Shown: piece after piece, positions 4,832 through 9,423 of the stretch
How positions within the stretch are numbered: the stretch's first letter is position 1
How the letters are laid out: each line of letters opens with the position of its first letter
UHGV virus genome: UHGV-0234484
Source of the DNA: a virus
DNA length: 13,965 nt
Direction: 5' to 3' (one strand)
Made by a program: the position numbers and the translations under genes
The notes under the pieces: model-generated
The model's database searches: none
What the model was told of the DNA's origin: nothing
The model's input: the letters and a program-made list of their open reading frames with translations, nothing else

Positions 4832-4989
4832 ATTTTTTCCGTATATGACTAACTGATATGAATATGTATCAGGACTATTTTATGGCAAAACCAGAGTAGA
4901 AGGCCATTGGGTCCGGAGTGTTGATGTGAACAAATTACCCCCCCCTCTAAGTGTAATTGATATGTATTATCATTTTCGGGTCCTTTCCG

Positions 4990-5190
4990 GCGATCCGGAG
5001 CGTTACGGGGCGGAAGGCGCGCGGGTTTTCGCTATTTATGAAAATTTTCCGGTTTAAGGCGTTTCCGTTCTTCTTCGCCGTAACTTAATGTTTTTATTTA
5101 AAACACCCTCTGAAAAGAAAGGAAACGACAGGTGCTGAAAACGAGCTTTTTGGCCTCTGTCGTTTCCTTTCTCTGTTTTTGTCCGTGGAA
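4990..5190 (+). other. cos: cos site (cosQ / cosN / cosB) for terminase-mediated packaging; cosN at about 5008-5019
   Basis: From 5020 onward the sequence (CGCGGGTTTTCGCTATTTATGAAAATTTTCCGGTTTAAGGCGTTTCCGTTCTTCTTCG...) matches my memory of the lambda left end (cosB with R3/I1/R2/R1) almost base for base, up to the nu1 ATG at 5197. The 12 nt just before it read GGGCGGAAGGCG, against lambda cosN GGGCGGCGACCT. Confidence 0.8.

Positions 5191-5742: not shown

Positions 5743-9423
<3,681 letters not shown>

Follow-up and report, generated by a model that had tools for sequence, protein, structure and literature searches.

The cos sites of lambda-like phages are conserved in cosQ, in cosN's left half and in the CG pairs at the nicks (PMC4669245, Feiss et al. 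2015). Differences in bp 7-12 of cosN are described as 'common' among these phages, with N15 and phiD326 departing from lambda at positions 9 and 12, and Gifsy-1 at positions 8, 9 and 11 (PMC4669245). Mutations in cosN's right half have minimal phenotypes and no measurable effect on cos cleavage. More specifically, the change G2C lowers the yield by a factor of about ten, but the symmetric C11G is silent, an asymmetry that is attributed to TerS at cosB, which anchors TerL for nicking of the bottom strand (PMC4669245). Lambda TerL gives the same yield on cosN-lambda as on cosN-N15, and chromosomes with ends mismatched at 2 of the 12 positions are viable, with a yield about fourfold lower (PMC4669245). 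These published tolerance tests spanned single changes, position 7 not being among them, and the 2-bp N15 allele (PMC4669245). For phage LLS/mEp213, the putative cohesive end GGGCGGCGCGCT has been reported (PMC12315714).

We analysed a stretch of 13,965 nucleotides from the virus genome UHGV-0234484 (hereafter the window), which represents the late region of an E. coli lambdoid prophage residing in the chromosome and which over its full length is 99.7% identical to E. coli strain E28. The region 5' of cos comprises, in order, a DUF968 gene, a QuuD antiterminator, a minus-strand ompC-like porin gene, an essD/rrrD/Rz lysis cassette and two ORFs, and the region 3' of cos carries nu1, A, W, B, C, D, E, FI, FII, Z and U, all as intact ORFs. 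The porin gene, flanked by the Q-type antiterminator on one side and the lysis genes on the other, is cargo of the lysogenic-conversion type. The minus-strand ORF between Rz and cos lacks an annotation in the near-identical RefSeq genome, and phages that are otherwise alike vary strongly in the stretch 5' of cos. An Rfam search of the window gave no match. The features of the region are collected in Table 1.

Table 1. Positions, strands and supporting evidence for the cos elements and selected genes of the window.
Feature	Position	Strand	Basis
Porin gene, OmpC family, 360 aa	952..2034	-	Pfam Porin_1, E = 1.9e-151
ORF between Rz and cos, 185 aa	3868..4425	+	no Pfam match
ORF between Rz and cos, 108 aa	4505..4831	-	no Pfam match
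cosQ (GGGTCCT), packaging-termination element	4978..4984	+	exact match; lambda-equivalent -29 to -23; role per PMC4669245
cosN nicking region ACG / GGGCGGAAGGCG / CG	5005..5021	.	alignment to annotated lambda/DE3 cos
Predicted 12-nt 5' cohesive end GGGCGGAAGGCG	5008..5019	+	alignment
Variant right half AAGGCG (lambda CGACCT)	5014..5019	+	five substitutions inherited as one block
I2, cosN-R3 segment, same as lambda	5020..5059	+	alignment
cosB R3 CGTTTCCGTTCTTCTT, putative TerS binding site	5060..5075	+	lambda positions 53-68; same as lambda in alignment
I1/IHF region	between R3 and R2		cosB architecture per PMC4669245
cosB R2, inverted R element	5117..5129	-	sequence match; architecture per PMC4669245
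cosB R1	5159..5173	+	sequence match
nu1 (TerS), 181 aa	5197..5742	+	Pfam Phage_Nu1, E = 5.5e-101
A (TerL, gpA), 641 aa	5717..7642	+	Pfam GpA_ATPase and GpA_nuclease

The 12-mer GGGCGGAAGGCG occurs once in the window, preceded by GTTACG and followed by CGCGGGTTTTCGC. Its lambda counterpart is GGGCGGCGACCT, labelled 'cos site' in the record of phage DE3/lambda. In a direct alignment to this record, the two cos sites are collinear and of equal length, the substitutions being C>A at cohesive-end position 7, G>A at 8, A>G at 9, C>G at 10 and T>G at 12, while positions 1-6 and C11 are the same as in lambda. All changes fall within bp 7-12 and leave the flanks and cosQ unaltered, which makes the site a right-half variant. 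It stands apart from phages whose ends are identical to those of lambda, 21, 434 and phi80, as 5 of the 12 positions of GGGCGGAAGGCG differ. From 5020 to the start of nu1 (cos positions 13-189), 173 of 177 bases match lambda, with no indels. Five changes within 6 bp are thus followed by four within 177 bp, and our own binomial estimate, based on a per-site divergence of 2.3%, gives P ~3e-8, so that the clustering is not due to chance. The alignment bears out a sequence-only reading of this locus, which had given the lambda cosN correctly, as the annotated DE3/lambda site shows, and had proposed five substitutions in cosN's right half beside an intact left half, together with a near base-for-base match to lambda from 5020 through cosB and into nu1.

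The remaining elements of the site follow lambda closely. The pattern ACG/GGGCGG....../CG (slashes at the nicks) of lambda-like cos sites is present, cosQ is located 20 nt 5' of ACG/GGGCGG as in lambda, and the flanking CG dinucleotides and the distance to R3 are the same. R3, I1, the inverted R2 and R1 are found at the fixed distance from cosN, adjoining the TerS and TerL genes. Nu1 differs from its lambda homologue by three residues (V46A, A75T and L132I; 178/181 identical) and gpA by I459V as the sole difference (640/641; 99.8% identical), in agreement with the earlier proposal that terminase and cosB are essentially lambda-like.

Compared with the described systems, the window shares cosQ, cosN's left half, the CG flanks, I2, R3/R2/R1 and their spacing with lambda. 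N15 and phiD326 (cohesive end GGGCGGCGTCCG, confirmed directly for N15) are likewise natural right-half variants that have G12 and keep C11, and their cosN is cut by lambda TerL as well as cosN-lambda (PMC4669245). N15, however, is 2 positions off lambda and has a simple cosB of its own specificity, whereas the window is 5 positions off and has a lambda-specific, three-R cosB. The Gifsy-1-type cosN, as well as CAGCGT and CAGACT from Citrobacter and Kosakonia, also vary within bp 7-12 and share A8 and G9 with the window. In contrast, C11 is altered in the Gifsy-1 type but retained in the window, whereas C7 and T12 stay as in lambda in the Gifsy-1 type and positions 7, 10 and 12 are changed in the window. 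The end of LLS/mEp213 is a further right-half variant in a phage with a lambda-like TerL, but differs from lambda at positions 9 and 10 only, and the head genes of this phage are unlike those of lambda.

The nearest relatives of the window allele were found in other E. coli prophages, whose cohesive-end alleles include GGGCGGCAGGCG, GGGCGTCAGGCG and GGGCGGCGACCG (loci with these alleles: L340-L358 from IMG/VR, L338 from E. coli ETEC1718, L339 from APEC E19035 and L337 from FDAARGOS_1295). Of these, GGGCGGCAGGCG (4 IMG/VR contigs) and GGGCGTCAGGCG (15 contigs) are one or two bases off the window allele and sit in similar cos backgrounds, but have C at position 7 where the window has A. The commoner of the two also carries the left-half change G6T, although selection is said to act on the left half. 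The right halves CAGGCG and CGACCG are intermediate between the lambda type and AAGGCG. Due to these near relatives, AAGGCG is best seen as the far end of a small allelic series rather than as an isolated oddity.

The spread of the allele was assessed in several collections. For E. coli, we built a 43-mer such that only the variant seeds a megablast hit and searched 5,426 complete genomes. The variant 43-mer was found at 193 places in 177 of these genomes, 16 of the places being on plasmids, and the lambda-type 43-mer at 7,428 places in 4,105 of them, both counts being approximate as they come from BLAST seeds. At an identity of at least 99%, 150 records of the variant 43-mer were obtained. 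In IMG/VR, an exact scan for the variant returned 93 contigs, of which 83 hold true cos sites and 10 match by chance in unrelated DNA. A degenerate scan in which the six right-half positions were left free returned at least 120 contigs, and among the matches listed, 112 carried CGACCT, 7 AAGGCG and 1 CGACCG. Among the cos haplotypes, 83 in number, cosQ is (nearly) invariant, and I2 positions 26-34 and 39-41 are (nearly) invariant although they had been left free in the search pattern.

PLSDB contributed 23 carriers, mostly plasmids of ~46 kb (phage-plasmids), from E. coli, E. fergusonii, E. albertii and Shigella sonnei. Because the 43-mer recurs in 177 of the 5,426 E. coli genomes, in 23 plasmids and in 83 IMG/VR contigs, an assembly artefact is ruled out. 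Among deposited phages, the allele was found only in YDC107_1, classified as Ravinvirus, and in PhiR46_1, whose host field reads ECOR13; regarding PhiR46_1 as a propagating phage rests on this host field of the record. Since the site is internal in both records, we infer the termini that go with the allele. The ~46 kb elements (PhiR46_1, L128; YDC107_1, L129; PLSDB entries H98-H120), which are assigned to Ravinvirus or filed as plasmids, have a lambda-type three-R cosB and a lambda-like Nu1/A, and not the simple cosB of N15. A literature search for the 12-mer returned only an unrelated Ginkgo paper, and a search for PhiR46_1 or an ECOR phage by accession and name returned nothing relevant. A dedicated earlier survey, outside the reach of the 12-mer search, is reportedly that of Vahanian, Oh, Sippy and Feiss (2017, Virology 509:140-145).

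Beyond Escherichia, we scanned GTDB at one genome per species with the degenerate pattern, which gave 118 hits. Most of these were chance matches in high-GC genomes, and a downstream motif of the TATTTATGA type was therefore required. The right halves that passed this filter were CGACCT, CGTCCG (N15 type), CAGACT, CAGCGT (Gifsy-1 type), CGGCCT and AAGGCG, the last one in a single Escherichia species only. Across species, positions 7 and 11 are the most conserved of the right half and position 9 is the most variable, and the one unusual feature of the window allele is its change at position 7. As a separate observation, the cos regions of L204 (Raphidiopsis brookii D9, ACYB01000015.1) and L211 (Aeromicrobium sp. 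PE09-221, a 3,062-bp contig) are exactly those of lambda over the spacer, cosN and the first 40 downstream bases, and most likely represent lambda or cosmid-vector contamination of the assemblies of a cyanobacterium and an actinobacterium.

The AAGGCG block was found on very different cosQ-cosN spacers and on three backgrounds. The first is a cosB with a lambda-type R3. The second, carried by L048, L009 and L102, has a cosB that resembles that of phage 21: it contains three CATGTCGG repeats and shows 86.8% identity to X02501, the phage 21 cos record. In the third, the site adjoins an N15/Monarch-like TerS (L071 and L261). The presence of the block on the 21-like and the N15/Monarch-like backgrounds indicates free reassortment of cosN's right half with respect to packaging specificity. 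In L071 (IMG/VR 2645728091_000007), no TerL-sized ORF was found within 3 kb downstream of the variant cos, while the TerS gene is intact; the terminase gene of this contig may be disrupted, or the arrangement may be different. In a comparison of 10 variant with 103 lambda-type loci, the five substitutions were perfectly linked and flanking sites were loosely associated, for instance G at -10 and C at +97. We also considered a linked haplotype imported from a diverged lineage. In a scan from -150 to +760, these five sites were the only ones in perfect linkage, and a long imported tract was rejected on this ground.

Taken together, we regard it as highly probable, as judged from sequence comparison, that 4978-5173 is a working lambda-type cos of a chromosomal E. 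coli lambdoid prophage that carries a natural right-half allele of cosN. The cohesive ends of this phage very probably differ from those of lambda, and they are most likely 12-nt 5' ends of altered sequence, produced without a change in terminase specificity. More specifically, TerS (Nu1) would bind R3, R2 and R1 of the lambda-specific cosB, and bound TerS would anchor TerL (gpA) at a fixed distance from cosN. TerL would then nick at the lambda positions, cutting the top strand before 5008 and the bottom strand after 5019, which would give virion DNA with 12-nt 5' overhangs of GGGCGGAAGGCG and its complement. This anchoring would render nicking insensitive to sequence in the cosB-proximal half of cosN, where the five changes are located. 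A change in terminase would thus not be needed, and no such change is seen; the phage life cycle should be unaffected, since its own ends stay perfectly complementary.

To describe the annealing of the ends, we calculated duplex energies with DNA nearest-neighbour parameters. The predicted values are -18.6 kcal/mol for a variant + variant duplex and -19.0 kcal/mol for a lambda + lambda duplex, compared to about -9.5 kcal/mol for lambda + variant, which reflects the cost of the five differing positions in cross-annealing. In the predicted hybrid, only the six GGGCGG pairs form and the bottom-strand nick is left unpaired. Judged by these energies, cyclisation of the phage's own chromosome should be normal, whereas a chromosome with one lambda-type and one variant end should cyclise poorly. 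Such chromosomes could come from hybrid concatemers or from tandem heterologous prophages. The likely consequence of the allele is therefore poor annealing to lambda-type ends in chimeric chromosomes, and not a packaging barrier.

These predictions bear on a possible role of the ends in isolation. Cohesive-end alleles could represent compatibility groups, in which single-crossover recombinants with mixed ends cannot cyclise and the allele is kept for the partial isolation that results. Hybrid ends that pair over 6 bp only would fit this explanation, as would the roughly fourfold loss of yield caused by a 2-bp mismatch alone (PMC4669245). The right half also looks two-state within Escherichia despite a very diverse cosB, with few discrete types among 83 distinct haplotypes (76 CGACCT, 6 AAGGCG and 1 CGACCG). 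Yet the flanks, TerS and TerL are undifferentiated between the allele classes, which points to extensive gene flow, and intermediate right halves (CAGGCG and CGACCG) occur. Furthermore, the mean diversity of bp 7-12 across species is 0.28 at the filtered GTDB sites, about that of the cosQ-cosN spacer (0.30), which fits relaxed constraint; because of this match, we do not claim selection for discrete end types, and consider maintenance of the allele for isolation very unlikely. That the Escherichia alleles CGACCT, AAGGCG and (G/T)CAGGCG act as end-compatibility groups and form a partial recombination barrier is a proposal to which we assign a low probability. If it were true, the mismatches at 5 of the 12 positions would prevent chromosomes cut between a lambda-type and a variant cos from cyclising. 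Selection would in that case remove single-crossover recombinants between groups, along with transduction from tandem heterologous prophages, and the ends would constitute a built-in, so far uncharacterised partial barrier to recombination in otherwise freely mosaic phages.

Another explanation places the difference in the terminase. The variant cosN might need or reflect a co-adapted terminase with altered nicking specificity, such that lambda terminase fails on it and a packaging barrier arises. To assess this, we extracted TerL wherever a fetched locus had a recognisable cos and sufficient downstream DNA, and aligned the resulting 68 proteins. The TerL of the window is 100% identical to that of L078, which adjoins a lambda-type CGACCT cosN, and among the 7 variant and 37 lambda-type proteins that are more than 95% identical to that of the window, no TerL column tells the alleles apart. 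I459V is frequent next to lambda-type cosN as well, with 19 of those 37 loci carrying it. With no discriminating residue in the alignment, co-evolution of the terminase with the allele was rejected, and by this comparison, in which the same TerL stands beside both alleles and no residue is associated with either, a cosN-specific TerL is not required. Altered specificity would nevertheless be conceivable for a site with five of six right-half bases changed, including position 7, which is rarely altered elsewhere, given that the published tolerance tests were limited to single changes and the 2-bp N15 allele. Against it stand, besides the TerL comparison, a Nu1 that is only three residues from lambda, the occurrence of the allele with three TerS/cosB classes and the tolerance of the right half in published genetics (PMC4669245), and we consider it highly improbable.

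The expectation in the sequence-only reading that the change bears on nicking specificity, or on cross-packaging and cosmid compatibility, was thus not borne out, given the TerL shared with L078, the lack of a TerL column that tracks the allele, the three cosB/TerS backgrounds of the allele, the published right-half tolerance and the equal use of cosN-N15 by lambda TerL (PMC4669245). As cosB is lambda-specific, lambda terminase is expected to package a cosmid or phage with the variant cos.

Least probable of all is a decaying, non-functional cos of a defective prophage with the clustered changes as mutational debris: although only a prophage is seen in the window and many lambdoid prophages of E. 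coli are defective, an identical 6-bp block is found again in hundreds of independent genomes with diverse flanks and in phage-plasmids, all adjoining cos elements are intact, as are 11 packaging and head genes, and decay would not have spared 170 flanking bases.

The allele is maintained, not decaying. As a natural right-half allele of a lambda-type cos, GGGCGGAAGGCG is recurrent, is located in the change-tolerant half of cosN, and is real and fairly ordinary. It represents a further, more extreme and fairly common form of a polymorphism already described in lambda-like phages, and leaves the current understanding of the terminase mechanism unaltered. With changes at 5 of 6 positions, it provides an unusually extreme natural test of the published rule that terminase does not read the cosB-proximal half of cosN, and the allele can be used as a reagent to determine how many cohesive-end mismatches cyclisation tolerates. 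Tools for termini or annotation that are keyed to GGGCGGCGACCT will overlook the variant sites. As a whole, roughly 2-3% of the lambda-like cos sites of E. coli, and many N15-like phage-plasmids as well, carry a sticky end other than the textbook lambda one.
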